Below, in pieces: positions 13,871 to 44,619 of a stretch of 64,000 bases of DNA. The notes beneath the pieces were generated by a model. The model saw only the letters and a program-made list of their open reading frames with translations. It did no database searches and had not been told where the DNA came from. The translations under genes were made by a program, and so were the position numbers. Origin of the DNA: Gemmatimonadota bacterium. Lineage in GTDB: Bacteria > Gemmatimonadota > Gemmatimonadetes > Gemmatimonadales > GWC2-71-9. Each line of letters begins with the position of its first letter. The stretch's first letter is position 1. The stretch is from assembly GCA_031394255.1 (NCBI GenBank), contig JANMXA010000042.1:157991-221990 (forward strand). Direction: 5' to 3'.

Positions 13871-13948
13871 CGTCGGATTGCCTTGCCAAACGCCTCACCG
13901 GTCCAGAGATTCGGAGCGGCCCCGAATGTTCCCCGACGAGAGGCGTTC

Positions 13949-19049: not shown

Positions 19050-19107
19050 CCACCATCGAAGGACCGTGTATGCGTGTTGACCGGCCTGACCCCGCGGACC
19101 GTCGCCG

Positions 19108-24643: not shown

Positions 24644-26280
24644 CGCAGCGCTCCGCGATAGCCGGGGCCCCGAATTACCCGGCCCGGTTTGGCGCCGGTG
24701 TACTTGCCGTTCTCGAACACGGCCACGCCATTCACGAAGACCACGTCAATGCCGGTCGAGAGCGTTGCGGGTGTGGCGAAGGTCGCCCGGTCCTGGACGG
24801 CCGCCGGATCGAGAATGACCAGATCCGCCGCCAGTCCCGGCGCGATCCGCCCGCGGTCGTAGGCCATGATCTCGTTGGCCGCGACGGCACTCATCCGGTG
24901 GATCGCCCCCTCGAGGCTCAGGGCGCCGAGGTCGCGAACATATCGGGCCAGCACGCGGGGGAAGGCGCCGTATCCCCGTGGATGGACGGCGAAACCGGTG
25001 GCGGCGGGGCCGGCATCCGTGTCGAACGACGTGAACTCCTCTCGCATCGCCTTGATCTTGTTCGCTTCCGACATGCTCTGGGGCATTGCAAATGCTTCGG
25101 TCTGGGCGATGGCGAAGAAGACCACCCAGGGGTCCTGGCCGACGCCGCGGGCGATGGCGCCGACCGATTGGCCGTTGTACGCCTGATACGCCGGCAAGGT
25201 CAGACCGGCGACGACCACGCGATCCCAGTTCTTGCCAACGTGGGCGAACCAGTTTTCCCACCCGTCGGTTGTTTCCATATCCCGGCGTATCTCCGCCTGG
25301 ATCGCCGGGTTGGCGAGCTTCTTCATCAGCGCGTCCTGGCCTTCGGCTGCATGCCTGGGATGCAACAAAGCCCGGATGCCAAGACCGTTGTTGATGTAGG
25401 GGTAGACATCGACCCCAACCTGCTGGCCGTCGGCGCGGGCGGCGCGAATTCGGGCGAGGGCCTGGTCCATCTTGCCCCAGTTCGCCTGGCCGGCGGTCTT
25501 CAGGTGATAAATATGGACCGGGGTCCCCGCAGCCTTGCCGATGCGGAGCGCCTCGTCGATGGCTTCGAGCAGGCGGTCGCCCTCGTTGCGCATATGGGTG
25601 AAGTAGCGACCGCCGTACTCGCCGGCCACGCGGGTCAACTCGGTGATCTCCGCTTCGGAGCCGTAGATCGCCGGCGGGTAGATCAACGAGGTGGAGACGC
25701 CGATGGCGCCGGCCTCCATCGCTTCGCGGACCATCGCCCGCATCCGGTCGAGTTCCTCCGGGGTGGCCTGGCGATCGGTGTCGCCGATTACCAGTTGCCG
25801 GATCTGGGTGTGCCCGACCGTCTGAGCCATGTTCATGGGCATGCCGGTCTGGTCGAGCCTGGTCAGGAACTCCCGCATCGTCCGCCATCCGCGGCGCGTG
25901 CCCTGGGCTTCGTCGAGCGGTGCGTCGCTTTCGCCCTCGCCCGCATTGATCGTGGTGATGCCCTGCGAGATCAGATTGAGGGCGTTGGCCGGATCAAGCA
26001 GGAATGGGGCTGCCGTCTGGCCCATCATGTCGATGAACCCAGGGGTGACGGTCCTCCCGGTGGCGTCGACCGTTTTGCGGCCGAGTGCCGGCGCGATCCG
26101 ACCGATTGCCGCGATCCGGCCGTCGAGGATGCCGATGTCCCCCCAATACCACGGGGCCCCGGTGCCATCGACGATCCGGCCCCCGTGAATGACGACATCG
26201 TACCGGGGCGCCTGGGCCGGTACGGCCGATGGCGTGCCCAGGAGTCCGAGGGCCAGCAGCCACTTCGTCTTCAGTTCCAT
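24640..26280 (-). CDS. N-acyl-D-amino-acid deacylase (D-aminoacylase) family amidohydrolase, secreted
   Basis: Signal peptide MELKTKWLLALGLLGTPSAVPAQA. YDVVIHGGRIVDGTG...PGFIDMMGQT...TTINAGEG. C-terminal ADLVILDP...ATF..P. 4-nt overlap with the LanC-like gene. Confidence 0.88.
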   Translation of the reverse strand: MELKTKWLLALGLLGTPSAVPAQAPRYDVVIHGGRIVDGTGAPWYWGDIGILDGRIAAIGRIAPALGRKTVDATGRTVTPGFIDMMGQTAAPFLLDPANALNLISQGITTINAGEGESDAPLDEAQGTRRGWRTMREFLTRLDQTGMPMNMAQTVGHTQIRQLVIGDTDRQATPEELDRMRAMVREAMEAGAIGVSTSLIYPPAIYGSEAEITELTRVAGEYGGRYFTHMRNEGDRLLEAIDEALRIGKAAGTPVHIYHLKTAGQANWGKMDQALARIRAARADGQQVGVDVYPYINNGLGIRALLHPRHAAEGQDALMKKLANPAIQAEIRRDMETTDGWENWFAHVGKNWDRVVVAGLTLPAYQAYNGQSVGAIARGVGQDPWVVFFAIAQTEAFAMPQSMSEANKIKAMREEFTSFDTDAGPAATGFAVHPRGYGAFPRVLARYVRDLGALSLEGAIHRMSAVAANEIMAYDRGRIAPGLAADLVILDPAAVQDRATFATPATLSTGIDVVFVNGVAVFENGKYTGAKPGRVIRGPGYRGALR

Positions 26281-27230
26281 GCCATGCCTTTGAGTTGGTC
26301 AAGGTTGACGTTGCCGCCGCTCAATACGCAGGCGACTCGCGATCCGGCCGGCAGGCGGATCAGACCTGCCCGCAACGCGGCCACCGGGGCAGCCGCCGCG
26401 CCTTCGACCACCAGCTTACAGCGCTCCATGATCCAGAGCACCGAGTCGAAGATGTCGGTGTCCGGCAAGGTCACGATTTCGTCCACGTAGCGCTGGCAAA
26501 CCGAGAACGTGAGGTCACCCACCGTGCGAACCCGGAGCCCATCAATCACCGTGCGACAATCGATCGTCACGATCCGGCCAGCGGCGATGCTTTCCTTCAT
26601 CGCCGGGCCGTCGGAGGACTCTACCCCGATGATTCGAATGTTCGGGTTGTGGCTCTTCGCCGCCATCGCGACTCCGGAAATCAGTCCGCCCCCGCCGATC
26701 GGGACGACAATCGCGTCCACCTCGGGCCAGTCGGAGACGATCTCGAGGCCCAGGGTGCCCTGGCCGGCGATGAGATCGGAGTCGTCGAACGGGCTCACAT
26801 ACGTGAGGCCTTCGGTCCGAACCAGTTCCTTGGCCTTCTCGTTGGCTTCATCCCAGATCCGCCCGTGGAGGATCACCTCGGCCCCGTATGCCCTGGTGGC
26901 GGCCACCTTGGCGGGGGTCGCGTTTTCCGCCATGCAGACCACCGCCCGGACGCCATGGATGCGGGCGGCGAGGGCCACTCCCTGGGCATGATTGCCGGCC
27001 GAAGAGCAGACGATGCCTCGTCGTTTATCCTCGGGGCTCATCAGGGCCAGTTTGTTGAGCGGGCCCCGAATCTTGTAGGCCCCGACCCGCTGGAACATCT
27101 CGGCCTTGAGCCGCACCTCGTGGCCGCTCAACTCCGACAGCTGGCGTGAAGAGAGCAGGGGGGTGTGGTGGATGTGGCGGCTGATCCGTTCCCGGGCCGC
27201 CCGGAAGTCATCAATGGTCAGGGCAAGCAT
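26271..27230 (-). CDS. PLP-dependent serine/threonine dehydratase family enzyme (fold type II, no ACT domain)
   Basis: PLP lysine motif VGAYKIRGP, SSAGNHAQGVALAA, GGGGLISG. 10-nt overlap with the D-aminoacylase gene. Confidence 0.9.
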   Translation of the reverse strand: MLALTIDDFRAARERISRHIHHTPLLSSRQLSELSGHEVRLKAEMFQRVGAYKIRGPLNKLALMSPEDKRRGIVCSSAGNHAQGVALAARIHGVRAVVCMAENATPAKVAATRAYGAEVILHGRIWDEANEKAKELVRTEGLTYVSPFDDSDLIAGQGTLGLEIVSDWPEVDAIVVPIGGGGLISGVAMAAKSHNPNIRIIGVESSDGPAMKESIAAGRIVTIDCRTVIDGLRVRTVGDLTFSVCQRYVDEIVTLPDTDIFDSVLWIMERCKLVVEGAAAAPVAALRAGLIRLPAGSRVACVLSGGNVNLDQLKGMAWN

Positions 27231-29190: not shown

Positions 29191-29442
29191 GCCTCGGGGT
29201 ACTGACCCAGCCTGGGGGAGCAGGCGGGGCATGGGGGAGACTCCGATCATGGATCGGAACGCTTGCTTGTTTGGGCAATCGGCGTGCCGGTTCCCTTTCG
29301 GCAATGGACCCCGCTGCAAAGCCTTTTCCGTCTTGCGCTTAGGTTCGGACGGGGTCGCCGCTCTTCAGGTGTCGCCCGCCCACTGCTGATCCGCCGTCAC
29401 CACAGGACTGTCGCTCCCTCCCAACGAAAGAGGAACCCAGGC

Positions 29443-30597
29443 ATGGTCCGATTCGCCGCATTGGTCATGGCGCTGGTCGGTGTGGCGCCGCGGGTTGTCG
29501 CCCAGCCGAGGCCCCGGGCACGCGATCTTGGCGTGGCGCCCGGGGTGTTTCGACCCGGCGCCCGGAACGCCATCACGGACGTATCAGGGGTCCGTGTTGG
29601 TCAGGTGACCGTAACCGAAGGGGACTCGGTCCGGACCGGACTCACCGCGATTTTCCCGCACGCCGGCAACCCCTTTCTCGACCGGGTGCCGGCGGCGATC
29701 GTGGTCGGGAACGGGCACGGCAAGCTTCTCGGATCGACCCAGGTGGCTGAGTTGGGCGAACTGGAGACCCCGATTCTGCTCACCTGCACGCTGTGCGTGT
29801 GGAAAGTCGCCGATGCCATGGTGGGCTGGCTGCTCGAACAGCCCGGCATGGAGAAGGTCTACTCGATCAATCCACTGGTAGGTGAAACCAACGACGCCGG
29901 CTTGAATGCGATCCGCTCGAGACCGATCACGGCGAGTCAGGTGCGCACGGCTCTCGACGCGGCCTCGACCGGGGAGGTGGCGGAAGGGTCGGTGGGCGCC
30001 GGGGCCGGAACCAGCGCGTTCGGCTGGAAGGGTGGGATCGGTACCTCGTCGCGGAAGCTGCCGGAATCACTGGGCGGGTGGACCGTCGGGGCTCTGGTTC
30101 AGAGCAACTACGGCGGCATCCTTCAGATCCTCGGCGTTCCGGTTGGCCGGGAGCTGGGCCGGTATTCATTTCAGCGCGAGGTGGAGAAAGAGCCGGGTGG
30201 TGGCTCAATCATGATTGTCGTGGCAACGGATGCGCCGCTCGACGATCGGAATCTCCGCCGGCTTGCGACCCGGGCCCTGCTGGGCCTCGGCCGCACCGGA
30301 TCGTTCATGGGGAACACGTCGGGGGATTACGTGATCGCATTCGCGACCCATCCGGCCGTTCGGCGCCCGGTGCCCGACCTGGCGGCCCGACGGGACAGCC
30401 TGGTCACCGGCCGCCGCGAACTGGCGAACCAGGAGATGCCGGCGCTGTTCGAGGCGGCGGCCGAGAGCACCGAAGAGGCGATCTACAATTCGCTTTTTCG
30501 AGCGACGACCGTGTCAAGCCGGTTCGGCACGGTGGAGGCCCTGCCGATCGACCGCGTGACGGCTCTCCTCAGGAAGTACCGGGTTGTAGAGCGTTAG
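29443..30597 (+). CDS. DmpA/BapA-type (peptidase S58, P1 family) aminopeptidase, secreted
   Basis: Trimmed to the ATG at 29443 (AAAGAGGA upstream). Signal peptide MVRFAALVMALVGVAPRVVAQ. Self-processing/nucleophile region GGGSIMIVVATDAPL. Confidence 0.85.
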   Translation: MVRFAALVMALVGVAPRVVAQPRPRARDLGVAPGVFRPGARNAITDVSGVRVGQVTVTEGDSVRTGLTAIFPHAGNPFLDRVPAAIVVGNGHGKLLGSTQVAELGELETPILLTCTLCVWKVADAMVGWLLEQPGMEKVYSINPLVGETNDAGLNAIRSRPITASQVRTALDAASTGEVAEGSVGAGAGTSAFGWKGGIGTSSRKLPESLGGWTVGALVQSNYGGILQILGVPVGRELGRYSFQREVEKEPGGGSIMIVVATDAPLDDRNLRRLATRALLGLGRTGSFMGNTSGDYVIAFATHPAVRRPVPDLAARRDSLVTGRRELANQEMPALFEAAAESTEEAIYNSLFRATTVSSRFGTVEALPIDRVTALLRKYRVVER

Positions 30598-30977
30598 GCG
30601 CCGGTGCGCCAGGCGGCGGCCCAGCCGGCAAGGGCGAATCCTCCGAACACGGCCGACACGGCCAGGATGCCGGACAATCCGCCGTACACGGCCGCCCGGC
30701 CGAATTCGCCCTGTTCGATCAGGGCCGCCACTTCGATGCTGAAGGTGGAAAAGGTCGTGTATCCCCCGCAAAATCCGATGGTGAGGAACGCCTTTGCTTC
30801 GGGAGACCAGGCCGCGGTGAGCGCGGTGTACCGCGCCACGAACCCGAGGATCAGGGAGCCGGTCACGTTGACCAGCAGGGTCGCGACCGGCACCGGCGTC
30901 GGCCGGGCGAAGGCCAATGCCACGAGATAGCGGGCAACACCCCCAAGAGCGCTGCCCAGCGCGATGAACGGAATCAT
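30594..30977 (-). CDS. crcB: Fluoride ion channel CrcB
   Basis: 127 aa, four TM. LGGVARY..., LLVNVTGSLILGF, GFCGGYTTFSTFS. Confidence 0.9.
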   Translation of the reverse strand: MIPFIALGSALGGVARYLVALAFARPTPVPVATLLVNVTGSLILGFVARYTALTAAWSPEAKAFLTIGFCGGYTTFSTFSIEVAALIEQGEFGRAAVYGGLSGILAVSAVFGGFALAGWAAAWRTGA

Positions 30978-31016: not shown

Positions 31017-31463
31017 TCAGAGGCGAACCCGAGTCTTGGGGGGAGCCGCCAGGACCTGATGGATCGCCGTTACGACGAAGTCGTCGTCGCTCAGCAGGAC
31101 GAGCTCGCCACCGCGGGGCGATGGCCGGAACAGGCAGCGGACCGATCCGCGGTGATCGACCAGCACCTGGATCGCGGGAAGGTCGGTGCGGATGATCCGG
31201 ACGCTGCGAAAGTCGCCGCGCCGGATCGCCGCAGCGTTCTCGAGCAGGTGGAGGCGAATGGTCTCGACGGCGACCGGATCTCCCCGGGGGTCCGCCATCG
31301 AAATCCGCCCCCCGCTCTCGTTGGCCGTATATCCGACCAACGGCGCGAAGAGCGCGGCCCGCGATACTGCAGAATTCTGCGCGTGCCCGAGGGTCGCGGC
31401 GCAACATGCAATGGCGGCCGAAAACGTCAGGCAACAGGCAAGCTGCTTCAGAGACCCGCCCAT
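31017..31463 (-). CDS. Secreted hypothetical protein
   Basis: ORF 31017..31502 trimmed to MGGSLKQLACCLTFSAAIACCAATLGHAQ (signal peptide). No recognisable family. Confidence 0.5.
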   Translation of the reverse strand: MGGSLKQLACCLTFSAAIACCAATLGHAQNSAVSRAALFAPLVGYTANESGGRISMADPRGDPVAVETIRLHLLENAAAIRRGDFRSVRIIRTDLPAIQVLVDHRGSVRCLFRPSPRGGELVLLSDDDFVVTAIHQVLAAPPKTRVRL

Positions 31464-31578
31464 GGTGTGGGCCGGCACGGATTTGGGTCCTGCGTGATTC
31501 ATGTTGGGTCACCCTTCCAGGACCGGAAGGAGGCAAGACGGGTGCCAATGGCGAGGGAGGGAAGCTCTTGCCGGTTGG

Positions 31579-32337
31579 TCAGCGTCCGAAGCGGGCGGCC
31601 TCTTCGGTGAAGGTCTGGAACAGGCGGCGCGTCCTCGGATCCTTCACTTCGAGGACTTCCGGGTGCCATTGCACACCGACGACGAAGCCGTCGCCCGGCC
31701 GTTCGACGGCCTCGACCAATCCGTCCGGCGCGAAGGCCGCCGGAATCAAGTCGTGGCCAAGGCGCTTGAGGCCCTGATGATGCATGCTGTTGACCGTGAC
31801 GCGCCCGGTGCCGAACGCCCGGGCGAGCCGGCTGCCGCCGGCCAGCTCGACTTCATGGGCCAGGTGGTCGCGCTCGAAGCCCGACGTCGGGAAATAGTCA
31901 TGCTTGATCGCGTTGGGCAGCTGATCCTCGAGGTCCTGATGGAGCGACCCTCCGAGCGCGACATTGATCACCTGGAGGCCCCGGCACAGCCCGAGCACCG
32001 GCTTGCCATCTTCAATCGCCCATTCGGCGAGCTGCAGCTCAACGGTATCCCTGGCGGGGTCGGTGTTTCCGAGCTTGGGGTGCGGCATCTCGTGATAGCG
32101 GGCCGGTTCCATATCCACGCCGCCGGCGAGGAGAATTCCATCAAGCCGGTCGTAGATGCAGCGCAGCGTGTCCGGGTCGTCATGGATCAGCGGGACCATC
32201 CACGGCACGGCGCCGGCATCCGTGGCGGCGTAGAAGTACCGCTGGTTCATGACCCAGGACGCCGGCAGCCCGCCGGGGATGCCGTCGATGGCCTGCAGGG
32301 TCTGGGTCGGTATGCCGATCGTCGGCCGGTATTTCAT
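31579..32337 (-). CDS. Class I glutamine amidotransferase-like peptidase C26 (gamma-glutamyl-GABA hydrolase PuuD family)
   Basis: Catalytic GLCRGLQVINVALGG, MHHQG, ...VQWHPE. Confidence 0.85.
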   Translation of the reverse strand: MKYRPTIGIPTQTLQAIDGIPGGLPASWVMNQRYFYAATDAGAVPWMVPLIHDDPDTLRCIYDRLDGILLAGGVDMEPARYHEMPHPKLGNTDPARDTVELQLAEWAIEDGKPVLGLCRGLQVINVALGGSLHQDLEDQLPNAIKHDYFPTSGFERDHLAHEVELAGGSRLARAFGTGRVTVNSMHHQGLKRLGHDLIPAAFAPDGLVEAVERPGDGFVVGVQWHPEVLEVKDPRTRRLFQTFTEEAARFGR

Positions 32338-32417
32338 GGCGCCGTCAAGATAATCAGGGTACTGGAATCATCGGCACGGGTGCCCCGGAACCCGAGCAAG
32401 GCCCGGGCCACTCGGCC

Positions 32418-33524
32418 CTAGAGGACACCTTCGGCCGTTTCGGCGATGAGCTGATCGACGACGGCCTTGAGATCGCCGGTTCGCTCGTAGGTGGCCAGCT
32501 GGCGGTCGGCGCTGGTCCCGTTTTCGAAGATCGTGAAGGCGTACTCGACCTCCTTCCGGCTGCCGAGTTCATCGAGGACGTCATCGACGAACCACTCGAT
32601 CAGTTCCCGGATCAAGGTCCGGGCCGGCAGCTCCCGGCTCTTGCCGAAGTCGATCATCTTCCCGTCGAGCCCATACCGGCAGGCCCGCCACTTGTTCTCC
32701 TCAATGAACGTCGCCGAGTGCAGGCGCCAGCTCAGGTTGTCCCGCCGCAGCTTCCAGACCTTGGCGATGATTGCCTGGAACAAGGCGGCGACGCAGACGG
32801 CTTCGTCCACCCGGGTGCAGACATCGCAGATCCGCATCTCCAGCGTGGGATAGCTCCAGCTGGGCCTGACGTCCCACCAGATCTTCGACGCATTCGGAAT
32901 GCTGCCGGTCTCGACCAGGGTGTTGACGACGTCCTCGAACTCGCCCCACGAGTGGAGGCTCCGGGGGATCCCAGTCCGCGGGAAGCTCCGGAACACGATG
33001 CTTCGGTACGACTTGAGGCCGGTCTTCCGGCCGAGCCAGAACGGTGAACTGGTCGAGAGGCAGAGCAGGTGCGGCATCATGTAGCGTACCGCGTTCATGG
33101 CTTCGATCAGGAATTCCTTGTCTTCGATTCCCACGTGGACGTGGGTGCCGAAAATCAGCAGCCGCTGGGCCAGTTCCTGGAGGTCCTCTTTGACCCCCAT
33201 GTAGCGTTCGAGCGGCGTGATCTCCTGCTCCAGCCAGCTCGAGAACGGATGGCTGCCCGCGGCCACGACCTTGAGGCCGTTCTTGGCCGCCAGATCCATG
33301 ACCAGGCGCCGGAGGCGGACCAGTTCGGCGCGGGCTTCCGCCGGGGTGTGGCAGACCTTCGTGCCGACCTCAACCATGGACTGGTGCAGCTCCGGCTTGA
33401 CCTCACCCAGCACCACGGAATCTTCCTTGAGAATCTCGGTGATGTACGAGCGGAGCTCCCGGGTCTTCGGGTCGATGATCTGATACTCTTCTTCGATACC
33501 GATCGTAAGGCTCGGCGGCTTCAT
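32418..33524 (-). CDS. Carboxylate-amine ligase, YbdK / glutamate-cysteine ligase family 2 (GCS2)
   Basis: Trimmed to MKPPSLTIGIEEEYQIIDP. H.HVG (FGTHVHVGIED), SSPFW.G, ...R.CD. Confidence 0.9.
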   Translation of the reverse strand: MKPPSLTIGIEEEYQIIDPKTRELRSYITEILKEDSVVLGEVKPELHQSMVEVGTKVCHTPAEARAELVRLRRLVMDLAAKNGLKVVAAGSHPFSSWLEQEITPLERYMGVKEDLQELAQRLLIFGTHVHVGIEDKEFLIEAMNAVRYMMPHLLCLSTSSPFWLGRKTGLKSYRSIVFRSFPRTGIPRSLHSWGEFEDVVNTLVETGSIPNASKIWWDVRPSWSYPTLEMRICDVCTRVDEAVCVAALFQAIIAKVWKLRRDNLSWRLHSATFIEENKWRACRYGLDGKMIDFGKSRELPARTLIRELIEWFVDDVLDELGSRKEVEYAFTIFENGTSADRQLATYERTGDLKAVVDQLIAETAEGVL

Positions 33525-33570
33525 GACAACCGTTCCGGTCTGGCTGAAAGGTGAGGAGCGTAACGATCCG

Positions 33571-34917
33571 TCATCGGGGCTCAACCACGAAGGTCGGCAC
33601 GGTGGAACCACCGCCCGCCGTCACGTTCACGAGGGTGGCGGTCGACACCCGTGTGAGGCAGCCGTCCACGAACGCGCCGTCAAAGCAGAAGGGCGCCGTA
33701 TCGACGATGCGATCGGCGTAGACCACGGCTCCGTCGCCCAGACTCGGGAAGGTCTCCGACGGGAGTCCGATTCGCCGCTGAACGATGGACGGCTTTTCGA
33801 GTGCCCGGGCGACTTCAGTCGCCCAGCGGCTGTCGTCGACTTCCCAACCGAGAACGACGCCCGTCCCACCGTAGTCATCGTTCGGCTTGAGGACCAACTG
33901 GTCGCGATTGGCCGCAACGAAGGGCAACAGGTCGATGGTCGTGTTGTCGAGCCTGGTGGTCCGCTCCTCCACCACCCGAGTCCAGGGCACATGGTCATCG
34001 ATCACCGATCGCTCGGCGGCCGTGAACAGGTGGTGATTGCGTTCATCACTCAGAACAGCCAGGCTGGCCTTCTTGTGGAGGATCTTGCAGCGGAATGGAT
34101 TGACCATGCAGACGGCGCCGTCCCGAACGGCCCGGACCATCGGGTGATCAAGACCGCCCTCCTCGATCAGCTCATTGATCAGCACCCGTTTGTAGATCAG
34201 ATCAATGCGGACGCCTTCGGAATACAGGGCGCCGTCATGATAGTCCACCTCGCGGGGATCGCCGATCACGCACTCGATACCCAGACCGGTGAAATAGTCG
34301 CGAAACAGACGAAACTCGCTCTGCGTCGGGACTTCCTTCCAATCAAGGATGCCGATGGTCGGCTTCTTCGACCCGCCGGCGAAACTCCGATAGGCCTCGA
34401 GGAGGGAGTGGAAGACGTGATGCCGCACCGGGAGCGGAGTGATCGCGAACCGGGACCGGAATCCTCGCAGTGCGGGCAACGCCAGAAAGAGGTCCGTGAG
34501 CGCGTCGTTGTAGCCAGAGCCCGCGGGGGTTTCGGCGTTGTACTCCGTAAAGCGAAGTCGGCCGTCGTCAGGCGAGAAGAACGCATCGAGGCGCGATACC
34601 GGCGACGCCACCGTTCTGGGGTCTTCCAGGGCCAGCGTGCGCTCCCAGGGCTCCAGCCGGAACTGGTCCAGCACGGCCGGATTGGCGAGCGCCGCCGCCA
34701 AGGCGGTATCGAAGGCGCCAAGGAGGCCGCCGATTCGGGCCCGCATCTCGTCGTACTGACTCCTCGCGAGGAACCGGGGTCTGAGCACGGTGCACAACGG
34801 GCGATCACCGAACAAGAGCCCGCGCCTCGCCAACTCGGCCTGGAGCCACTCTCCCGACTCAACGCCGATCGGGCCGTCGAGCGATGCGTGCCAGGCCTGA
34901 ATGGCAGCCTGGGTCAT
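33571..34917 (-). CDS. Circularly permuted ATP-grasp type 2 / glutathionylspermidine-synthase-like amidoligase
   Basis: Trimmed to the ATG at 34917 (ATGA overlap with the upstream gene). RLDAFFSPDDGRLRFTEYNAETPAGSGY, LVLKPNDDYGGTGVVLGW, LVNVTAGGGSTVPTFVV. Confidence 0.7.
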   Translation of the reverse strand: MTQAAIQAWHASLDGPIGVESGEWLQAELARRGLLFGDRPLCTVLRPRFLARSQYDEMRARIGGLLGAFDTALAAALANPAVLDQFRLEPWERTLALEDPRTVASPVSRLDAFFSPDDGRLRFTEYNAETPAGSGYNDALTDLFLALPALRGFRSRFAITPLPVRHHVFHSLLEAYRSFAGGSKKPTIGILDWKEVPTQSEFRLFRDYFTGLGIECVIGDPREVDYHDGALYSEGVRIDLIYKRVLINELIEEGGLDHPMVRAVRDGAVCMVNPFRCKILHKKASLAVLSDERNHHLFTAAERSVIDDHVPWTRVVEERTTRLDNTTIDLLPFVAANRDQLVLKPNDDYGGTGVVLGWEVDDSRWATEVARALEKPSIVQRRIGLPSETFPSLGDGAVVYADRIVDTAPFCFDGAFVDGCLTRVSTATLVNVTAGGGSTVPTFVVEPR

Positions 34918-35870
34918 GCCGGTCCGGGGCGAACGGGACGGCCCTTGAGCAGGCTCTCCCAACTGGGCCTCGGCGTGGCCAGCGGCGCTTTAGCGAGGCG
35001 GATCGCCATGTCGGCCATTGCCTTGACGACCCACTCGAAATGGGTCGGCGTCAGTGAATGGATATCCATGTCGGGGGCCGGGTTCATGAAGTCGATCGCG
35101 TAGGGAATGCCGTCCCGGATCGCCCATTCGATCGAGTTCATGTCGTATCCAAGCGCCCGAACCAGCGTCAGCGAGTCGGCCACCACGCGATCGTGCAGCG
35201 GTTTCGGGAGGAAGTCGAGTTCAGTGTGGTATTTCCGGGCCTTGGGATCGTACTTGATCGGGTAGATGACCTCCTGCCCAATACACAGGCAGCGAACGAA
35301 CTCATCCCATTCGATGAACTCCTGCACGATCATCGTGAGCAGCCCGGACCGGTCGTAGTTGTACAGCAGTTCCTCGAGGCTGCGGCAGACGTAGACTTCC
35401 TTCCAGCCGCCGCCGTGGGCGTCCTTGAGAATGCAGGGCAGCCCCACATGGTCCACGATCGCCTGCCAATCGAGCGGAAACTCGAGGTTCCGGAGGCTCT
35501 CCGTGTGGACGATGCCGGGGACGTATTCCTTGTTCGGCACCACGACCGTCTTCGGACTCGCGAGGCCGAGCGAGGTGGCCAGCGTCGCGCCGAAAAACTT
35601 GTCGTCCGCCGTCCACATGAAGGGATTGTTGACGACCGTGGCGCCCTGCAGGGCGGCGTGCTTGAGGAAGGTCCGGTAGAACGGGACCTCGTGAGAGATC
35701 CGGTCAATGATGACCCGGTATTTCGGCGGATCGTCCATGTGCGGAGCGCCGATTTTCACGAACTCGGCCACCACGCCTTCGTTGCGGCTGTTGACCTCCT
35801 CGATGAACGCCGGGGGCCAGCTCCATTCCCGGCCAACGATCAGCCCGACTTTCTTGATATCCGATGCCAT
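34914..35870 (-). CDS. ATP-grasp domain protein (RimK-like fold)
   Basis: LPCILKDAHGGGWKEVYVCRS, IVQEFIEWDEFVRCLCIG, AIDFMNPAPD. First gene of the operon. Confidence 0.8.
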   Translation of the reverse strand: MASDIKKVGLIVGREWSWPPAFIEEVNSRNEGVVAEFVKIGAPHMDDPPKYRVIIDRISHEVPFYRTFLKHAALQGATVVNNPFMWTADDKFFGATLATSLGLASPKTVVVPNKEYVPGIVHTESLRNLEFPLDWQAIVDHVGLPCILKDAHGGGWKEVYVCRSLEELLYNYDRSGLLTMIVQEFIEWDEFVRCLCIGQEVIYPIKYDPKARKYHTELDFLPKPLHDRVVADSLTLVRALGYDMNSIEWAIRDGIPYAIDFMNPAPDMDIHSLTPTHFEWVVKAMADMAIRLAKAPLATPRPSWESLLKGRPVRPGPA

Positions 35871-36906: not shown

Positions 36907-37557
36907 ATGATCCGTCGATTCGTCCCGGCTGCGGCCATTCTGATGGTGCTGGCGCCGGGGGTGGCATTGGGGCAAAAGACCGGTGTGGCTGTTACGCCGT
37001 TCTTCGGCCTGACGGTCCCCGGCAAATTGCTGCTGCTGCGACCCGGCCTGGATCCGGCGGTTCACGCGGAGAAACAGGCGGTACTGGGCGTGATCGGCGG
37101 CCGGATCAATATCGGCCTTACCCAGTCGCTCGAGTTCCAGGGGGATCTGGGATACGGCTCCAGCGGGCTCAAAGTGGCGAGCCTGGCTGCGCCGTCGGGC
37201 ACCAAAGCCAGCGTCCTCACGATGAGCGGCGAGCTGGTCTACCGAAACAAGCCAGCGGTCGAACCGTTCTCCCTGACCCTGCATGGTGGTATTGGCGCGG
37301 TTCACCGCTCGTTCTCCGAGAACACCGGGACGATGACGGCGCTCCGGCCCAAGACCAGTATCGGGGCTGTCCTCGGCGCGGGCTTCAATTTCCGGGCATC
37401 CCGCCGGGCGGCGGTCGTGGTCGGAATCGACGATTTTATCTACAATGCCAGCTTCAACCTGGGCACCGGTACTCAGAGCGCTGGTACCACTCAGGCGCTC
37501 ACCCAGAATGACGTACGAATAACTCTGGGCTTCCGGGTGTCGATCGCAGGCCAATGA
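36907..37557 (+). CDS. Outer-membrane beta-barrel protein (OmpW/porin-family-like)
   Basis: Signal peptide MIRRFVPAAAILMVLAPGVALGQ. Alternating hydrophobic beta-strand pattern. Function unassigned. Confidence 0.65.
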   Translation: MIRRFVPAAAILMVLAPGVALGQKTGVAVTPFFGLTVPGKLLLLRPGLDPAVHAEKQAVLGVIGGRINIGLTQSLEFQGDLGYGSSGLKVASLAAPSGTKASVLTMSGELVYRNKPAVEPFSLTLHGGIGAVHRSFSENTGTMTALRPKTSIGAVLGAGFNFRASRRAAVVVGIDDFIYNASFNLGTGTQSAGTTQALTQNDVRITLGFRVSIAGQ

Positions 37558-37630: not shown

Positions 37631-40171
37631 CTAGAAGCGGGTCGTCAACCCGGCCAGGATCCGGCGGCCGTTCACCGAGCCACCGTAGATCGAATACCGC
37701 TGCTGGTCGAAAATGTTGTTCCCGGTTGCGTAGATCCGCAGGCGGTTGCTGACTGCGTAGGCGATGTTGGCGTCCACCGTTGTCTGCGGTTCGATCCACC
37801 CCGCAAACACGCCCGCCGCCCAGTCGAACCCCTGGGCAGACCGCAAGGTCACCCCGGCGTCGAAGCCCTTCCGGCCGGCGTAGGTGAGCGAAACGTTCCC
37901 TTTCGCTCGGGGCGTGTTCGGCAGGAGCTGGTCTCCGGCGAGCTGCTCCTTGATGTCGAAACGGAAGAACGACAGTGAGCCGTCCGCCCGGATCCCGGGC
38001 GAGAACTGGTATCCAGCCCCGACTTCGACGCCGTACTGGGTGGCCTTGCCGGCGTTGGCATACGAAAGGACGATGGCCGATCTGCCGTTCTCGAGCCGGG
38101 TCAGACCCCGCCCGGCCGTGGTCGTCGCCGGGTTGCCAAGGAGAGCGGAACGGATCGCGCCTTCGACGGCACCCCGAGCCGCGGCCGGTACCGCCGCCGG
38201 CGCGGTCCACTTCGGGAACGCGGGGTTGACGCCCGGCAACAAATCGGTGACGAAGTTCGTCAACGTGTTCAGGTAGCCGTCGACCGTGACGTAGAACTTG
38301 CTCGTCAGATCGCCGCGATAGCCGAGCTCGAGACCGGTGTTCTTCTCGACCTGCAGGCTGCTGTTACCGCGGGCCCGAACCGGTACCGCCGCACTGTTGT
38401 CGAACAGCGTCCCGACCGGCACAGCGCCGAGGAGCGGGCCGAGGGATGCATTGGCACGGAGAGCGGCTTCGAGGGCGGTGAAATTTGCTGGTGCACCGGC
38501 GGCGACATTGAGGAAGAATTCGGAATAGTTCGGCGTCTGGAACGCCTTGTTGAGCGTCAGGCGGATCGAGTGATGATCGTTCGGCGCAAAGACCAAGGCC
38601 GCCTTCGGTGAGAACTGGGCGTCGATCAATCCGCCGAGATCGAATCGCGCGGCCGCGACGGCCTTGAGTTTGTCGCTAAACTTGTATTCCAGCTGGCTGA
38701 ACGCCGCATAGTAGTTGTCGGAGCGGTCGTCGTTGCCGGACCCGATCAGAGTCCGCTGGGTATTGACGCTGTAGTTCCGGAAGGAGGCACCGAGGACGAA
38801 CCGACCGCGGTCGTCGCCGAACTTGTTGCTTTGCTGACCCTCGAAATGGAAGACGTTCGACCGTTCCTCGAGGCCGGCGCCCGAGGCCAGCGAGTACTGC
38901 GGTTCTCTGGTGTCCCGGCCATTCCAGTAGGCCATCAGGTTGTAGTTCCGGGCGGCGTAATTGAAGCGGGCATAGGGGCGGACCGACTTGGTAATCTGGA
39001 CTCGGCCGATGCCGGTGACGGCGATCTCATTTTCCGCCTGGGCCCCGCCGACCTCGGCCGTGGCCACGGCGCCATTGTCGGTGTAGTAATCGACCCGGGC
39101 CGACCCATACATGTTCCTGATCGGATCACGGTCACCGAGTGCGGCCCCGGTGCCCGGGTCGATGGACTGTCCGTTCAATGCCCGGAGCTCACGCCGGGCA
39201 CAACTCGAGCAGCTCGGCCGGAACGCCAGCGAATCCGATGCCGCCATGTACTCGGACCTGAGTCCGGTACCATCGAGCAGGGTCCGCGAGCGGGACCAGG
39301 TGTCGCTGCGGTAGTAACCGGCATTCAATCGGTACCCGATCCGTCCGGCCCATAGGAGGCCGGCATGGCGGAGGTCGCCCTTGATCGTCGAAAGTTCACC
39401 GCCGCCCAGACTCAGTTTGGTGCCGACCACCTCGCGGGCCGACGGCGTCTTGATGTTGAGAACCCCCGCATAGGCGTTGGCCCCGTAGAGTGCGGACCCC
39501 GGCCCCCGGACGAATTCCATGGCGGAGATGTCCTCCGTGGGCACGGGAAGGGAGGTCCATTCCTGATTGCCGAGGAACGCGGTCGCGACGTCGCGGCCGT
39601 CGACCAGAACCAGGACGCGGCGATTGAGCGACGAGTTGAATCCCCGGGCGTTGACGTTGAAGTCGTTGACCCCGCTCTGGGCGAGATCGACACCGGGGAC
39701 ATTGGCGAGAGCAAGCGGAGCTTGCCCTGTGATCGATGTGGACTGCAGAATCCGCGGATCGACTACCGTGACGGCGGCCGGCGCCTCGACGGCTCGTTCA
39801 GGCACTTTCGAGGCGCTTTCGACGATCAGATCATTGAGCGCGACGGGTTGGGACTCCATCCGGGCGTCCGCCGTCACTGTACTACCGGCGATGACGGTCA
39901 CGGTGACCTCGGTCGGTTTGTAACCAAGCCAGCGGAACACCAGTGTCCGTGGCCCGGCAGGAACGCGTTCGATCGTGTACTTGCCGTTGGTATTGGTGTT
40001 GGCCCGGGTGCCAACGCCCCGGACAGCGACAACGACGCCGGCGAGCGGGGCGCCGTCGTCGGCGCGGGTCACGGTCCCCCGAATGACCCCGGTTCCCTGA
40101 GCGGCCGCTCGAGGCACGACGCACGCCAGGCAAAGGCCTGCCACCACGCCAGGCGAACGCAGCAAACGCAT
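37631..40171 (-). CDS. TonB-dependent receptor with an N-terminal carboxypeptidase-regulatory-like domain
   Basis: Trimmed to MRLLRSPGVVAGLCLACVVPRAAAQ. GVIRGTVTRADDGAPLAGVVVAVRG (CarboxypepD_reg), plug region with DGRDV / GPGSALYGANA, long beta-barrel, terminal ...LTTRF. Confidence 0.9.
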   Translation of the reverse strand: MRLLRSPGVVAGLCLACVVPRAAAQGTGVIRGTVTRADDGAPLAGVVVAVRGVGTRANTNTNGKYTIERVPAGPRTLVFRWLGYKPTEVTVTVIAGSTVTADARMESQPVALNDLIVESASKVPERAVEAPAAVTVVDPRILQSTSITGQAPLALANVPGVDLAQSGVNDFNVNARGFNSSLNRRVLVLVDGRDVATAFLGNQEWTSLPVPTEDISAMEFVRGPGSALYGANAYAGVLNIKTPSAREVVGTKLSLGGGELSTIKGDLRHAGLLWAGRIGYRLNAGYYRSDTWSRSRTLLDGTGLRSEYMAASDSLAFRPSCSSCARRELRALNGQSIDPGTGAALGDRDPIRNMYGSARVDYYTDNGAVATAEVGGAQAENEIAVTGIGRVQITKSVRPYARFNYAARNYNLMAYWNGRDTREPQYSLASGAGLEERSNVFHFEGQQSNKFGDDRGRFVLGASFRNYSVNTQRTLIGSGNDDRSDNYYAAFSQLEYKFSDKLKAVAAARFDLGGLIDAQFSPKAALVFAPNDHHSIRLTLNKAFQTPNYSEFFLNVAAGAPANFTALEAALRANASLGPLLGAVPVGTLFDNSAAVPVRARGNSSLQVEKNTGLELGYRGDLTSKFYVTVDGYLNTLTNFVTDLLPGVNPAFPKWTAPAAVPAAARGAVEGAIRSALLGNPATTTAGRGLTRLENGRSAIVLSYANAGKATQYGVEVGAGYQFSPGIRADGSLSFFRFDIKEQLAGDQLLPNTPRAKGNVSLTYAGRKGFDAGVTLRSAQGFDWAAGVFAGWIEPQTTVDANIAYAVSNRLRIYATGNNIFDQQRYSIYGGSVNGRRILAGLTTRF

Positions 40172-40317
40172 CCTGACCTCAACCTTCTCGATGGGAACGT
40201 CCTTGGCGGGTCGTGACCCCGCGGGACCCTGCCCCGGGCCAGTGCAGGGCTCATGGCTTTGCACACCCGCGTCGGGCGAAGAAAGTGCATCCCGGATCGG
40301 GGGGAGGCAAGAGGTTG

Positions 40318-41528: not shown

Positions 41529-41993
41529 TCAATCGGCCACTCGGCCGTCCAGCGCCCGGGTCAGGACCGCGGCATTGGGCCACCGGGTCCGGCTTCGGGC
41601 CAGGTCGGCGAGGGTCGTCCTCCGGAAGAACCGGACGATCCGTTCGCCAATCGCCTTCCACCCTTCATGCGCCGCGCACGGCTGGCGGTCGTTACAGACC
41701 GATTGACCCAACAGGCACCGCCGGGTCTCGGCGAAATGTTCGAAGGGCTCAACCACGTCGTACAGCGTGAGATTCGCAGCGGGCCGGGCCAACCGGAATC
41801 CGCCGTGTTTACCCCGGACCGATTCCAGCACGCCGGCGCGCACCAGCTGCGACAGGGTCTTCGAGAGGTAGTTGCGGGGAATGCCCAGGGCTTTGGCCAG
41901 GACCGCCACGTCGAGCGGGCCTGGCTCGGCATGCCGGGCCAGCAGGGTGGCCGCGCGGAGCGCGTACTCGGAGGTCTGCGAGAGGATTGCCAT
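41529..41993 (-). CDS. Rrf2-family transcriptional regulator with a Cys3(His) cluster-binding motif (IscR/NsrR-like)
   Basis: MAILSQTSEYALRAATLLA... HTH. CLLGQSVCNDRQPCAAH (C-x6-C-x5-C-x2-H). Confidence 0.9.
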   Translation of the reverse strand: MAILSQTSEYALRAATLLARHAEPGPLDVAVLAKALGIPRNYLSKTLSQLVRAGVLESVRGKHGGFRLARPAANLTLYDVVEPFEHFAETRRCLLGQSVCNDRQPCAAHEGWKAIGERIVRFFRRTTLADLARSRTRWPNAAVLTRALDGRVAD

Positions 41994-42008
41994 AAATCAG
42001 ATAAGGCC

Positions 42009-42052
42009 ATGATAATATGTGTTTTAAGTAGCGCAACCTGTTGCCCTGCAAC
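42009..42052. promoter_or_regulatory. Candidate Rrf2 promoter and an overlapping GCAAC/GTTGC half-site array in the Rrf2 / nos divergent region
   Basis: Minus strand: TTGCGC (42036-42031), 16 nt, TATCAT (42014-42009). Plus strand: GCAAC-CT-GTTGC-CCT-GCAAC at 42033-42052 (two overlapping palindromes). AT-rich surroundings. Confidence 0.35.
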
Positions 42053-42161
42053 ATTAATGAAGACTCTATCATCGGCGCTTCACGGTCGTTAGTTCGCCAA
42101 AACGGTAGCCTCCACCGTGAGTTTCACGCGGTTGCGAACCCACAACGATCCGGGAGTCGGC

Positions 42162-42659
42162 ATGCGGGCATTGTCTGGGCGGGAACGGCTGGTGGCGCTG
42201 GTGGTCCTCCTAGCCGCGTGCGGCGGCGGGAAGCCGGGTGATGGGGGGCCGGCGGCGCCGCCGGCGGCATCTGGTGCGGCCGGGGGAGGCGACCTCAGCC
42301 CGTTCGAGCTGGAGCATGGCATCGGGCCGGTCAAGGACGTCGTGACCCTCGGCCCGCTCGACCAAGCGTTGCTGGCGAAGGGAACCGAGGTGTTCAAGGG
42401 GAAATGCACCGCCTGCCACAAGATGGCCGAAAAGTATGTCGGGCCGGCTTTGGGCGAGGTGATGACCCGTCGGACGCCGACCTACGTCATGAACATGATT
42501 CTGAATCCCAACGAAATGGTCGAGCGTCACCCGATCGCGAAACAACTGCTGGCCGAGCACATGACGATGATGGCCAACCAGGGGTTGTCGGTCGACGATG
42601 CCCGGGCGGTTGTCGAGTACTTGCGGACCCAGGCAAAGGGTACCGTCAAAACGAAGTGA
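42162..42659 (+). CDS. Monohaem c-type cytochrome lipoprotein (clade II nos-cluster cytochrome c)
   Basis: ORF from GTG 42117. More likely starts at the ATG at 42162, giving MRALSGRERLVALVVLLAACGG (lipobox). Haem motif CTACHKM, distal Met-rich region. Confidence 0.85.
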   Translation: MRALSGRERLVALVVLLAACGGGKPGDGGPAAPPAASGAAGGGDLSPFELEHGIGPVKDVVTLGPLDQALLAKGTEVFKGKCTACHKMAEKYVGPALGEVMTRRTPTYVMNMILNPNEMVERHPIAKQLLAEHMTMMANQGLSVDDARAVVEYLRTQAKGTVKTK

Positions 42660-42681
42660 ACCACCGAGGAGGGTAGTCGCG

Positions 42682-44619
42682 ATGGATGCAAGACGGTTTG
42701 GTGCGGGGCTCACGTCCCTGCTTCTGGTTCTGATGAGCGGATGCTCGAAGGGCGCCCCCATCGGCGCGAGCGCCGACGCGGCCTCCAAGGTGTATGTCGC
42801 GCCCGGTCAGTATGACGAACTCTACGCCTTCATGTCGGGCGGCTTCAGTGGCAACGTGACGGTCTATGGCCTGCCGTCCGGACGTCTGCTGCAGCAGATT
42901 CCTGTGTTCTCGCAGTATCCGGAAAAAGGCTACGGCTATTCCGAAGAGACCAAGGCACTGCTGAACACGAGCTTCGGCTTCGTGCCGTGGGACGATGCTC
43001 ACCATCCGCAGCTGTCCACCACGGCCGGGGAGCAGGACGGCCGGTGGCTCTTCATCAATGGGAACAATACGCCGCGGATCGCACGGCTCGACCTGACCCG
43101 GTTCGAGACGGACGAGACGATCGAGATTCCGAACTCGGGTGGCGGTCACGCTTCGCCGTTTCTGACCGAGAACACGGAGTACGTCGTCAGTGCCACGCGG
43201 TTCTCGGTGCCGACGCCCCAGGCCGACGTTCCGATCGCCACATCGAAGTTCGGCGGCATGCTGACGTTCGTGAAGGTGGACAAGGCCAGCGGCCACATGT
43301 CCCTGGGTTTCCAGATCCACATGCCCGGTTTCGACTACGACCTGTCCCGCTCCGGGAAGGGGCCGTCCCACGGCTGGTCCTTCTTCAGTTCGTACAATAC
43401 GGAAGAGGCCAAGACGCTGCTCGAACGGAACGCCTCGCAGAAGGACAAGGATTTCATTGCCGCCGTGAACTGGAAGCAGGCGGAGCAGTGCGTGGCGGAC
43501 GGCAAGGCCAAGCCATGGCCGACCAGGTATGCCCACAATCTCCGGGATGAGAATGGCATTGCTCACACGGAGATGGTGGCGAACGAACCGGTCCTCGAGC
43601 CCAAGGATTGTCCCGGAATCGTGTACTTCCTGCCGACGCCCAAATCGCCTCATGGCGCCGACGTCGATCCAAGTGGCGAGTATATCGTCGGTGGTGGCAA
43701 GCTGGCCACGGTCCTGCCGGTACACTCATTCTCCAAGATGCTGAAGGCGATCGCCGACAAGGCGTTCGAGACCGAGATCGACGGGATTCCGGTCATCAAG
43801 TACGAAGCCGTCAACGCCTGCGAGGTTCAGAAGCCGGGCCTCGGGCCGTTGCATACCGAGTTCGACGGCAAGGGCTTTGCCTACACGTCCGTCTTCCTGT
43901 CGTCCGAGATCATCAAGTGGGACCTCAAGAAGTGTGAAGTCGTCGACCGGGTACCGACCTACTACTCGATCGGGCACCTGATGATTCCGGGCGGGGACAC
44001 CCGGAAGCCGTACGGGAAGTACGTCGTCGCCTTGAACAAGATCACGAAGGACCGCTACCTCCCGACCGGCCCGGAACTGACCCAGTCGGCGCAACTGTAT
44101 GACATTTCCGGCGACAAGATGAAGCTGTTGCTCGATTTCCCGACGACGGGTGAGCCTCACTACGCCCAGGCCATCCCGGCCGCGAAGATCAGAGATCAGC
44201 AGCTTAAGACGTTCGCCTTGACCGCGAACCATCACCCGCAGGCGATCAAGGCGGAGACCGAGGCCAAAGTCGTCCGGGAAGGCACCAAAGTCCACGTCTA
44301 CATGACCGCGATCCGAAGCCATTTCATGCCCGACAACATCGAGGGCGTCCAGGTTGGTGACGAGGTCTACTTCCACATCACCAACCTCGAGCAGGATTGG
44401 GACGTCCCCCATGGCTTCGCCGTGATGGGCGCGCAGAACGGGGAGCTGCTGATCATGCCGGGTCAGACGCTGACCCTGACCTGGAAACCGGATCGGACGG
44501 GTGTCTTCCCGTTCTACTGCACGGACTTCTGCTCGGCACTTCACCAGGAGATGCAGGGGTACATCCGGGTTTCGCCCAAGGGGTCAGGTACCAAGATGAC
44601 CTTCAACACCGGGCAATGA
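42682..44619 (+). CDS. nosZ: Nitrous-oxide reductase, clade II (Sec/lipobox-type signal)
   Basis: Trimmed to the ATG at 42682 (GAGGAGGG upstream). Signal MDARRFGAGLTSLLLVLMSGCS with no twin-arginine consensus. Seven-bladed propeller body. C-terminal CuA motif HGF...CTDFCSALHQEM. Confidence 0.97.
   Translation: MDARRFGAGLTSLLLVLMSGCSKGAPIGASADAASKVYVAPGQYDELYAFMSGGFSGNVTVYGLPSGRLLQQIPVFSQYPEKGYGYSEETKALLNTSFGFVPWDDAHHPQLSTTAGEQDGRWLFINGNNTPRIARLDLTRFETDETIEIPNSGGGHASPFLTENTEYVVSATRFSVPTPQADVPIATSKFGGMLTFVKVDKASGHMSLGFQIHMPGFDYDLSRSGKGPSHGWSFFSSYNTEEAKTLLERNASQKDKDFIAAVNWKQAEQCVADGKAKPWPTRYAHNLRDENGIAHTEMVANEPVLEPKDCPGIVYFLPTPKSPHGADVDPSGEYIVGGGKLATVLPVHSFSKMLKAIADKAFETEIDGIPVIKYEAVNACEVQKPGLGPLHTEFDGKGFAYTSVFLSSEIIKWDLKKCEVVDRVPTYYSIGHLMIPGGDTRKPYGKYVVALNKITKDRYLPTGPELTQSAQLYDISGDKMKLLLDFPTTGEPHYAQAIPAAKIRDQQLKTFALTANHHPQAIKAETEAKVVREGTKVHVYMTAIRSHFMPDNIEGVQVGDEVYFHITNLEQDWDVPHGFAVMGAQNGELLIMPGQTLTLTWKPDRTGVFPFYCTDFCSALHQEMQGYIRVSPKGSGTKMTFNTGQ

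Follow-up and report, generated by a model that had tools for sequence, protein, structure and literature searches.

The 64,000-nucleotide stretch of Gemmatimonadota DNA analysed here (contig JANMXA010000042.1; referred to as the window) carries on its minus strand four consecutive genes, called A to D below, for three ATP-dependent ligases and one hydrolase, preceded by a gene for an esterase-type alpha/beta hydrolase (Table 1). On balance we favour the reading that these five genes serve the stepwise non-ribosomal synthesis, with dedicated hydrolases, of a small gamma-glutamyl peptide-like metabolite, and it is very likely that the three to five ATP-dependent ligases encoded by such clusters make a defined compound. 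Since no conserved gene for a precursor, carrier or target lies in or beside the cluster among 80 compared loci, and since the gaps between the genes are short, ligase-based assembly of a small metabolite is the most economical reading.

The cluster is an instance of a class that comparative genomics has already predicted and not a new kind of system. What the present analysis adds is a core of esterase, A and B, the lineage-specific character of C and D, the inclusion of the window's esterase, and for B a predicted fold of the glutathione synthetase (GS) and glutathionylspermidine synthetase (GspS) class with catalytic positions that seem to match.

Extent and conservation of the cluster

An earlier note on this DNA had described four minus-strand genes, the first two overlapping in an ATGA and the others separated by 46 and 80 nt, and direct reading of the sequence confirms this layout: the ATG of B at 34917 shares bases with the TGA of A, and the gaps lie at 33525-33570 (B-C) and 32338-32417 (C-D). 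Independent gene calling on an identical public contig gives the same 448-, 368- and 252-amino-acid (aa) products for B, C and D, and the GC content at third codon positions (GC3) of 0.80-0.86 in all four open reading frames (ORFs) is the coding signature of a 65% GC genome. An origin in Gemmatimonadota agrees with homologues at 65-75% identity, which carry the label Gemmatimonadales. The overlap of A and B is counted as support for translational coupling; a promoter and terminator scan gave counts equal to the shuffled expectation. For the esterase the longest ORF extends to 36967, but homologues point to M52 at 36814 as the likely start, with which the overlap with the adjacent outer-membrane protein gene vanishes. 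The window cluster contains no gene for a precursor peptide or carrier, and with intergenic gaps of only 46, 80 and 119 nt there is no space in which one could be hidden.

To place this arrangement in a wider setting, genomes (one per species) were scanned with a 12-sequence alignment of B, which turned up relatives of B in at least 589 genomes. The comparison set consisted of the 80 best loci (55 from Gemmatimonadota, 24 from Chloroflexota and one from a Rubricoccaceae metagenome-assembled genome, MAG); the window proteins were mapped onto these loci, all neighbouring ORFs were clustered, and the denominators below count assessable loci. Gene A lies directly upstream of B on the same strand in 72 of 73 loci (50/51 in Gemmatimonadota and 21/21 in Chloroflexota), with an approximate median of 24 nt from the stop of A to the start of B. 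A PF00756 esterase is found at most 4.5 kb upstream of B in 54 of 58 loci (36/39 and 17/18, respectively). C is located downstream of B in 52/68 loci overall, which corresponds to 45/46 in Gemmatimonadota and 6/21 in Chloroflexota; for D the counts are 39/61, 38/41 and 0/19, and A, B, C and D are all present in 38/61, 37/41 and 0/19. In the one locus from Rubricoccaceae, A, the esterase, C, D and the complete A-B-C-D set are all present, and in many Anaerolineae-type genomes the conserved unit consists of esterase-A-B alone, with unrelated flanks.

Given that B in the Gemmatimonadota loci with A-B-C-D order (37 of 41) is only 53-79% identical to the B of the window, the recurrence of this order is more than chance. 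The co-conservation on which the earlier note had made its proposal depend is thus present. Its choice of four genes as the unit did not hold: the conserved and presumably ancestral core is made up of the PF00756 esterase, A and B, whereas C and D are accessory additions that are near-universal in Gemmatimonadota and, beside the Chloroflexota A-B pair, mostly (C) or wholly (D) absent. Because an esterase is kept upstream in 54 of 58 loci, the window's esterase gene, which fell outside the region described in that note, is counted as a member of the system. Two types of esterase occur across the loci, one of about 240 aa directly before A (c4) and one of about 275 aa (c6); the window holds the c6 type only.

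The number of ligases differs between loci. Extra ATP-grasp ligases of about 405 aa (cluster c9; ATP-grasp_4/3, Ddl-like) are seen in 10 of the 80 loci, one or two per locus and sometimes in tandem (Table 1), and several Chloroflexota loci have a single extra ATP-grasp ligase downstream of B. The maximum is five ligases in one cluster, reached by L070 and L072, which have C as well, and the varying number would agree with a modular ligase assembly of variable length. In a Gemmatimonadales MAG with a B 73% identical to that of the window (L003, at 7429-8913; likewise in L007) a group-II decarboxylase dependent on pyridoxal phosphate (PLP; PF00282) is placed between two esterases and A. Fewer than 6 of the 80 loci have this insertion, which hints at an amine substrate in the L003 lineage.

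Distant relatives of B pair with an Amidohydro_2 protein, with an FGase-like (N-formylglutamate-amidohydrolase-like) protein plus an AMP-binding enzyme, or with an M20/M28 peptidase, and therefore a recurring theme of a GspS-like ligase with a hydrolase, to which further ligases are added modularly, may be recognized. On a distant branch, one protein of 990 aa (P0260) fuses an AMP-binding (acyl-adenylating) enzyme to a B-like ATP-grasp and looks real, while in a Bacteroidales locus (L085) the AMP-binding enzyme and the B-like protein are divergent neighbours, accompanied by an FGase-like amidohydrolase and a TonB receptor. A second candidate fusion, of a B fragment with a GCS2 fragment (P0166), is probably a frameshift artefact and was not counted; its length is about that of B from residue 117 onward plus the full C, and the junction region is unmatched.

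Every neighbour cluster that recurs in over 14 of the 80 loci is an enzyme, and neither a conserved small ORF nor a LysW-like carrier or target gene is found in or beside the cluster in this set. The earlier note was right that no carrier or substrate gene is visible. A graspetide or another RiPP cluster, for peptides that are made by the ribosome and modified after translation, was rejected, as there is no precursor-peptide gene by the ATP-grasp gene and no conserved small ORF in the 80 loci. A defence system was likewise rejected, since none of the five proteins has a PADLOC match; in viral contigs, moreover, no relative of B was found. In a plasmid collection the relatives of B are all below 31% identity and labelled hypothetical or GspS-family. 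The B family as a whole comprises 3,571 clusters at 50% identity (E<=1e-3).

Enzyme families of the five proteins

The families that the earlier note had assigned to A-D are correct, as judged by Pfam and NCBIfam for C and D and by fold and profile for A and B. The profile searches it had proposed gave a divided outcome: GCS2 and Peptidase_C26 are passed by C and D, whereas ATP-grasp/RimK for A and CP_ATPgrasp_2 for B stay below threshold in Pfam.

Gene C is clearly predicted to encode a YbdK-type carboxylate-amine ligase. It scores 193.5 bits against GCS2 (PF04107, cut-off 21) and 527 bits against the NCBIfam model NF010039 'carboxylate-amine ligase' (cut-off 371), and finds E. coli YbdK (PDB 1r8g) at E 4e-46. 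The N-terminus holds GIEEE, which fits the GhExE signature that defines the carboxylate-amine ligase superfamily (PMC2588565). All glutamate-cysteine-ligase equivalogs (NF010042-NF010045) are missed, the best being NF010043 with 367.5 bits against a cut-off of 409.

B scores 22.5 bits (E 6.6e-5) against CP_ATPgrasp_2 (PF14403), under the gathering cut-off of 32; many B homologues at 64-84% identity carry a precomputed PF14403 annotation. Its AlphaFold (AF2) model is confident (pLDDT 87, pTM 0.88), and in Foldseek its matches to the glutathione synthetases of human, plants and yeast reach TM 0.65-0.71, with E of about 1e-15. Overall the Foldseek matches range from E 1e-15 to 1e-12 and TM 0.57 to 0.71 and comprise human GS, 3n6x, GspS, YgiC/YjfC and Cp1B. 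A profile of the B family against PDB retrieves 3n6x (CP_ATPgrasp_1) at 1.3e-14, Cp1B at 5e-9, YgiC at 5e-6 and GspS at 6e-3, with homoglutathione synthetase at E 0.63, and no GSH-synthetase or GSP_synth model of Pfam or NCBIfam is matched at E<=0.01. Going by its model, B is confirmed as a circularly permuted ATP-grasp of the CP_ATPgrasp_2, GspS and eukaryotic glutathione synthetase fold.

At the level of residues, an hhalign alignment of low confidence (probability 31%) between B and human GS (a sequence identical to 2hgs) pairs R109/D111 with R125/D127, E125/N127 with E144/N146, R244 with R267, K283 with K305, and K344 and its Gly-rich loop with K364 and the loop there. Subject to that low-confidence alignment, E125, N127, K283, K344, R109 and R244 of B are invariant in the 12-sequence alignment (A3), though R244 lies outside the invariant or nearly invariant columns of a wider alignment (A2), and the residues aligned are common to the entire GspS/GS class. 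Fold matches, profile matches and aligned catalytic positions together make it plausible that B is a catalytically able ligase of the GS/GspS class. Its resemblance to these synthetases keeps two products suggested in the earlier note, a thiol and a gamma-glutamyl-polyamine, possible and proves neither.

The similarities of C and B might be taken one step further. As a specific version of the proposed synthesis, the product could be a glutathione-like low-molecular-weight thiol, for which C would act as gamma-glutamyl-cysteine ligase, B would carry out a second step of the glutathione-synthetase type, A would add a residue, and breakdown of the thiol or of its thioesters would fall to D and the esterase. 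The PF00756 family does include S-formylglutathione hydrolase, the nearest function-naming NCBIfam models of C are glutamate-cysteine ligases (NF010043 above), glutathione synthetases are among the best structural matches of B, and the substrate-binding arginines align, at the hhalign probability just given. YbdK, the PDB relative of C, has weak gamma-Glu-Cys ligase activity (Lehmann 2004, as cited in PMC2588565). Nonetheless C stays under every glutamate-cysteine-ligase cut-off and fits the function-neutral NF010039, and B is nearer by sequence to 3n6x, Cp1B, YgiC and GspS than to glutathione synthetase and lacks a match to the GSH-synthetase Pfam models. Cysteine-related genes are not consistently linked, and most Chloroflexota loci lack C next to A-B; we therefore regard a thiol as unlikely.

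A is by profile and by its modelled fold confirmed as a classical three-domain ATP-grasp ligase, although each single score is modest: 19.7 bits against Pfam RimK (PF08443, cut-off 21), 37 bits (E 2e-9) against TIGR00768 rimK_fam, its best NCBIfam model (cut-off 143.4), and 19 bits against the LysX model (cut-off 276). A profile search against PDB gives Ddl at E 2.4e-5, in an alignment that spans K149 (the ATP-site lysine), the HGGGW Gly-rich loop and the Mg ligands D260..N263. Foldseek lists RimK (7qyr/5zk6) first at E 3e-10, followed by Ddl and ArgX/LysX at E of about 1e-10; the TM to RimK of just 0.35 is attributed to the moderate quality of the AF2 model (pLDDT 72). A presumably also shares N-terminal and ATP-site motifs with E. 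coli RimK. A kinase was considered as well, since ITPK1 is among the fold matches, but with RimK first by fold and rimK_fam as the top NCBIfam model this is less likely. At least 8,000 homologues of A exist, and it is the most conserved component of the cluster (59-92% identity across loci, against 52-79% for B).

RimK acts on ribosomal protein S6 and LysX on the carrier LysW, so the question arises whether the cluster modifies a protein or ribosomal peptide instead. In that case A would start a tag by attaching amino acids to a side chain or C-terminus, and this tag would be lengthened by B and C and shortened by D. Such a role would suit an enzyme that is nearest by fold and motif to RimK, LysX and ArgX and very strongly conserved between phyla, and there is precedent on the side of C, as the Pup ligase PafA arose from GCS2-like enzymes (PMC2588565). 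We nevertheless consider it quite unlikely: in the 80 loci neither a small ORF nor a LysW-like carrier or a target gene is conserved within or next to the cluster, an S6 or LysW-like gene is found neither in the window cluster nor among the conserved neighbours in these loci, and the characterised relatives of B (GspS, GS, Cp1B) all use small molecules. The 2008 paper of the Aravind group, moreover, takes a ligase with an amidohydrolase but no small ORF as a sign of metabolite synthesis (PMC2588565).

D is, clearly by its profile scores, predicted to be a peptidase C26 or class-I amidotransferase-like hydrolase (208.8 bits against Peptidase_C26, PF07722, cut-off 20.5). The motifs GLCRGLQ and QWHPE read in its translation are compatible with a Cys-His-Glu triad. 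Its PDB matches are Lin1909 (3fij, 2e-40) and PuuD (6vtv, 9e-30), while the score of 113.5 against the PuuD equivalog NF008471 is far from the cut-off of 266. The upstream esterase scores 103.8 bits against PF00756, has 'GSSMG' as its GxSxG nucleophile motif, and shows a faint similarity to enterochelin esterase.

From these hydrolases it might be argued that the cluster works in the opposite direction, in catabolism or salvage: an amine or peptide-like compound, once imported, would receive a gamma-glutamyl group for its detoxification or degradation, in the manner of the Puu pathway, and D would then release it, with the esterase opening an ester-linked import such as a siderophore. D is indeed PuuD-like, a TonB-dependent receptor and the esterase with its enterochelin-esterase similarity lie upstream in the window, and one distant B relative also adjoins a TonB receptor. 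Against this, the operon has no oxidase or (aldehyde) dehydrogenase equivalent to PuuB/PuuC and no glutamine-synthetase-like ligase, the TonB receptor is detected in just 10 of the 80 loci and in Gemmatimonadota only, and a Puu-type route needs no three different ligases in series. We judge this explanation very unlikely.

Predicted pathway and points that weigh against it

The enzyme families, their catalytic motifs and the conserved linkage of the genes are direct observations. For the synthesis that we favour, we infer the following order of steps, substrates and product. A five-gene cytoplasmic module (esterase and A-D) would build and trim a metabolite with a gamma-glutamyl or similar omega-carboxyl amide, in which each ligase would use ATP to turn a carboxylate into an acyl-phosphate and then join an amine to it. 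C may form the first gamma-glutamyl-X amide, B may couple one more amino acid, or an amine, to the C-terminal carboxylate that is left free, and A may add another, probably acidic, amino acid. Cleavage of the gamma-glutamyl bond by D would serve turnover or take off a glutamate used as a temporary handle, and the esterase-type hydrolase would open a different bond (ester, thioester or amide) in the product or in a precursor, again for turnover or for deprotection.

As far as is known, amide formation from an ATP-activated carboxylate is common to all characterised relatives of the three ligases. The relatives of C and B use small molecules (Glu and Cys; gamma-Glu-Cys and Gly; glutathione and spermidine), and those of A attach Glu-type residues to a carboxylate. 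The relative Cp1B joins epoxysuccinate to an amino acid (PMC12568646). In its general idea, that linked amidoligases make small peptides, the earlier note matches papers of the Aravind group: linked stand-alone peptide ligases are described as carrying out successive ligations towards metabolites or cofactors such as glutathione (PMC4431377), and neighbourhoods of a ligase with an amidotransferase-like peptidase and without a small ORF were read in 2008 as metabolite synthesis (PMC2588565). Its statement that such a gene set has no experimentally defined product also agrees with the literature, in which we found neither an experimental characterisation nor a product of such a cluster.

Several observations weigh against the proposed synthesis. 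Co-transcription would follow from the spacing of the genes only, and the compared loci show neither a transporter nor a regulator in consistent linkage with the cluster. On the side of the proteins, hhalign gives B a low probability against human GS, the model of A is of moderate confidence, and the TM of A to RimK is small. The identity of A between phyla (59-72%) is unusually high for an enzyme of secondary metabolism, and such strong conservation would also fit a macromolecular substrate. Finally, C and D are absent beside A-B in most Chloroflexota loci, which suggests that A and B do not strictly depend on them, at least in cis.

Gemmatimonadota and Chloroflexota are abundant in soil and water, and their small-molecule biochemistry is poorly known. 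A bolder proposal, which we hold to be doubtful, is that esterase-A-B(-C-D) makes an undescribed small gamma-glutamyl peptide as a cytoplasmic metabolite characteristic of the Gemmatimonadota and many Chloroflexota (for example a missing low-molecular-weight thiol, a redox buffer or an osmolyte), entirely with three to five stand-alone ligases, and that B is a bacterial counterpart of the eukaryotic glutathione synthetase. The compound, once identified, could prove to be a new thiol or cofactor-like peptide, and its identification would give first functions to two large families, those of A and B. Although the class itself will be no surprise to a specialist, the cluster offers a well-defined, widespread and tractable target for the discovery of a new metabolite.

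Surroundings and comparison with known systems

Several genes around the cluster were considered as parts of the system and set aside (Table 1). The ORF downstream of D (31017-31502, about 153-161 aa), whose N-terminus resembles a signal peptide and for which Pfam gives no match, is conserved at 48-54% identity and in the nearest relatives only. The TonB-dependent receptor was not included given its detection in only 10 of 80 loci, all from Gemmatimonadota, nor was an upstream BNR gene, for which two loci were covered, the window and a close relative (L003), both with the gene.

Further away, the window contains a nitrous-oxide reductase cluster (41529-48388), and peptidase genes are unusually dense at 13883-22244 and 29263-30597. 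A block of genes for a LanC-like protein, an Amidohydro_3 protein and a PALP enzyme (23300-27230) is syntenic with a related Gemmatimonadales MAG; in eukaryotes, LanC-like proteins bind glutathione.

Table 1. Positions of genes in the window and of the tandem extra ligases in comparison loci, with predicted products.
Feature	Position	Strand	Remarks
Gene A, RimK/LysX-like ATP-grasp ligase	34914-35870	minus	318 aa
Gene B, circularly permuted ATP-grasp ligase	33571-34917	minus	448 aa
Gene C, YbdK/GCS2 carboxylate-amine ligase	32418-33524	minus	368 aa, start MKPPSL
Gene D, peptidase C26, PuuD-like class-I glutamine-amidotransferase-like hydrolase	31579-32337	minus	252 aa
Esterase-type alpha/beta hydrolase, PF00756	35990-36814	minus	119 nt upstream of A
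ORF downstream of D	31017-31502	minus	
CrcB fluoride channel	30594-30977	minus	follows ORF 31017-31502
Outer-membrane beta-barrel protein	36907-37557	plus	upstream of esterase
TonB-dependent receptor with CarboxypepD_reg domain	37631-40264	minus	upstream of esterase
Rrf2 regulator	41529-41993	minus	nitrous-oxide reductase cluster
NosZ-like protein, nos_propeller domain	42598-44619		
NosD	45697-46893		
ABC ATPase	46893-47600		nitrous-oxide reductase cluster
ABC-2 permease	47597-48388		nitrous-oxide reductase cluster
Two tandem S15 X-Pro dipeptidyl peptidases	13883-15829, 15826-17661		
S9 prolyl-oligopeptidase-family protein, PD40 repeats	20247-22244		
S58 (DmpA-like) peptidase	29263-30597		convergent with operon; syntenic only in closest relatives
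LanC-like protein	23300-24643	minus	
Amidohydro_3 protein	24640-26280	minus	
PLP-dependent PALP enzyme	26271-27230	minus	
Tandem pair of extra ATP-grasp ligases, locus L070	4973-7457		upstream of esterase-A-B
Tandem pair of extra ATP-grasp ligases, locus L072	4996-7475		upstream of esterase-A-B
Tandem pair of extra ATP-grasp ligases, locus L033	1315-3768		upstream of esterase-A-B
Tandem pair of extra ATP-grasp ligases, locus L039	1413-4147		upstream of esterase-A-B

Among characterised systems, RimK carries out poly-alpha-glutamylation of ribosomal protein S6, and LysX/ArgX take part in amino-acid synthesis on the LysW carrier. A has the same fold, but falls far under the rimK_fam and LysX cut-offs and has no S6 or LysW-like gene adjacent to it. 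In ergothioneine (EgtA/EgtC) and butirosin (BtrJ/BtrG) synthesis a gamma-glutamyl group is used as a temporary handle. By analogy with EgtA/EgtC, a GCS2-type ligase might install a gamma-glutamyl amide here and the amidohydrolase of the same cluster could remove the handle; D is, however, of class I, whereas EgtC is a class-II (Ntn) amidotransferase-like enzyme, and the window neighbourhood has no EgtB/D/E-like or aminoglycoside genes. The Puu pathway resembles the cluster in that D is similar to gamma-glutamyl-amine hydrolases of the PuuD/SpuA type and lies near an ATP-dependent gamma-glutamylating ligase. It differs in that this ligase is of the GCS2 family and not a glutamine-synthetase-like PuuA, that PuuB/PuuC equivalents are missing, and that D stays below the PuuD equivalog cut-off.

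A relative of B that is detectable by sequence (profile E 5e-9; Foldseek E 1.5e-12) is Cp1B (PDB 9cjn), a fungal ATP-grasp amide ligase of an NRPS-independent (non-ribosomal peptide synthetase) pathway, E-64 biosynthesis (PMC12568646). The setting is different, Cp1B being fungal, with the epoxysuccinate warhead as acid substrate and an unrelated pathway context.

The synthesis of glutathione, glutathionylspermidine and trypanothione, which runs from gamma-Glu-Cys ligase over glutathione synthetase to GspS, resembles the cluster in that a GCS2-family ligase adjoins an enzyme of the GS/GspS fold; the low-confidence hhalign alignment (probability 31%) also pairs the Mg, ATP and substrate-arginine positions of B. 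The cluster has a hydrolase with its ligases, as GspS, a bifunctional synthetase/amidase, has its amidase domain, and GspS is echoed by the distant B relatives that pair with amidohydrolases. Differences are found in B, which has no GSH-synthetase or GSP_synth match in Pfam (E<=0.01), in C, which stays under the Glu-Cys-ligase cut-offs, and in the addition of a third ligase and an esterase.

Finally, Iyer, Abhiman, Burroughs and Aravind in 2009 reportedly described, according to the Pfam text for CP_ATPgrasp_2, neighbourhoods in which a circularly permuted ATP-grasp is linked to a GCS2-like ligase, to an alpha/beta-hydrolase peptidase, to a glutamine-amidotransferase (GAT)-like amidohydrolase and to an M20 peptidase, and for which synthesis of small peptides was predicted. 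The present cluster departs from this class in its amidohydrolase, which is of class I (C26) whereas that of the described neighbourhoods is reportedly GAT-II, in having the RimK-like A as the tightest partner (72/73), and in the score of the window's B below the PF14403 cut-off. It shares with the class a predicted small-peptide role that is without an experimental product, and an M20/M28 peptidase beside a distant relative of B; the partners of B are again a GCS2 ligase, a hydrolase of the amidotransferase-like kind and, in the form of the PF00756 esterase, an alpha/beta hydrolase.

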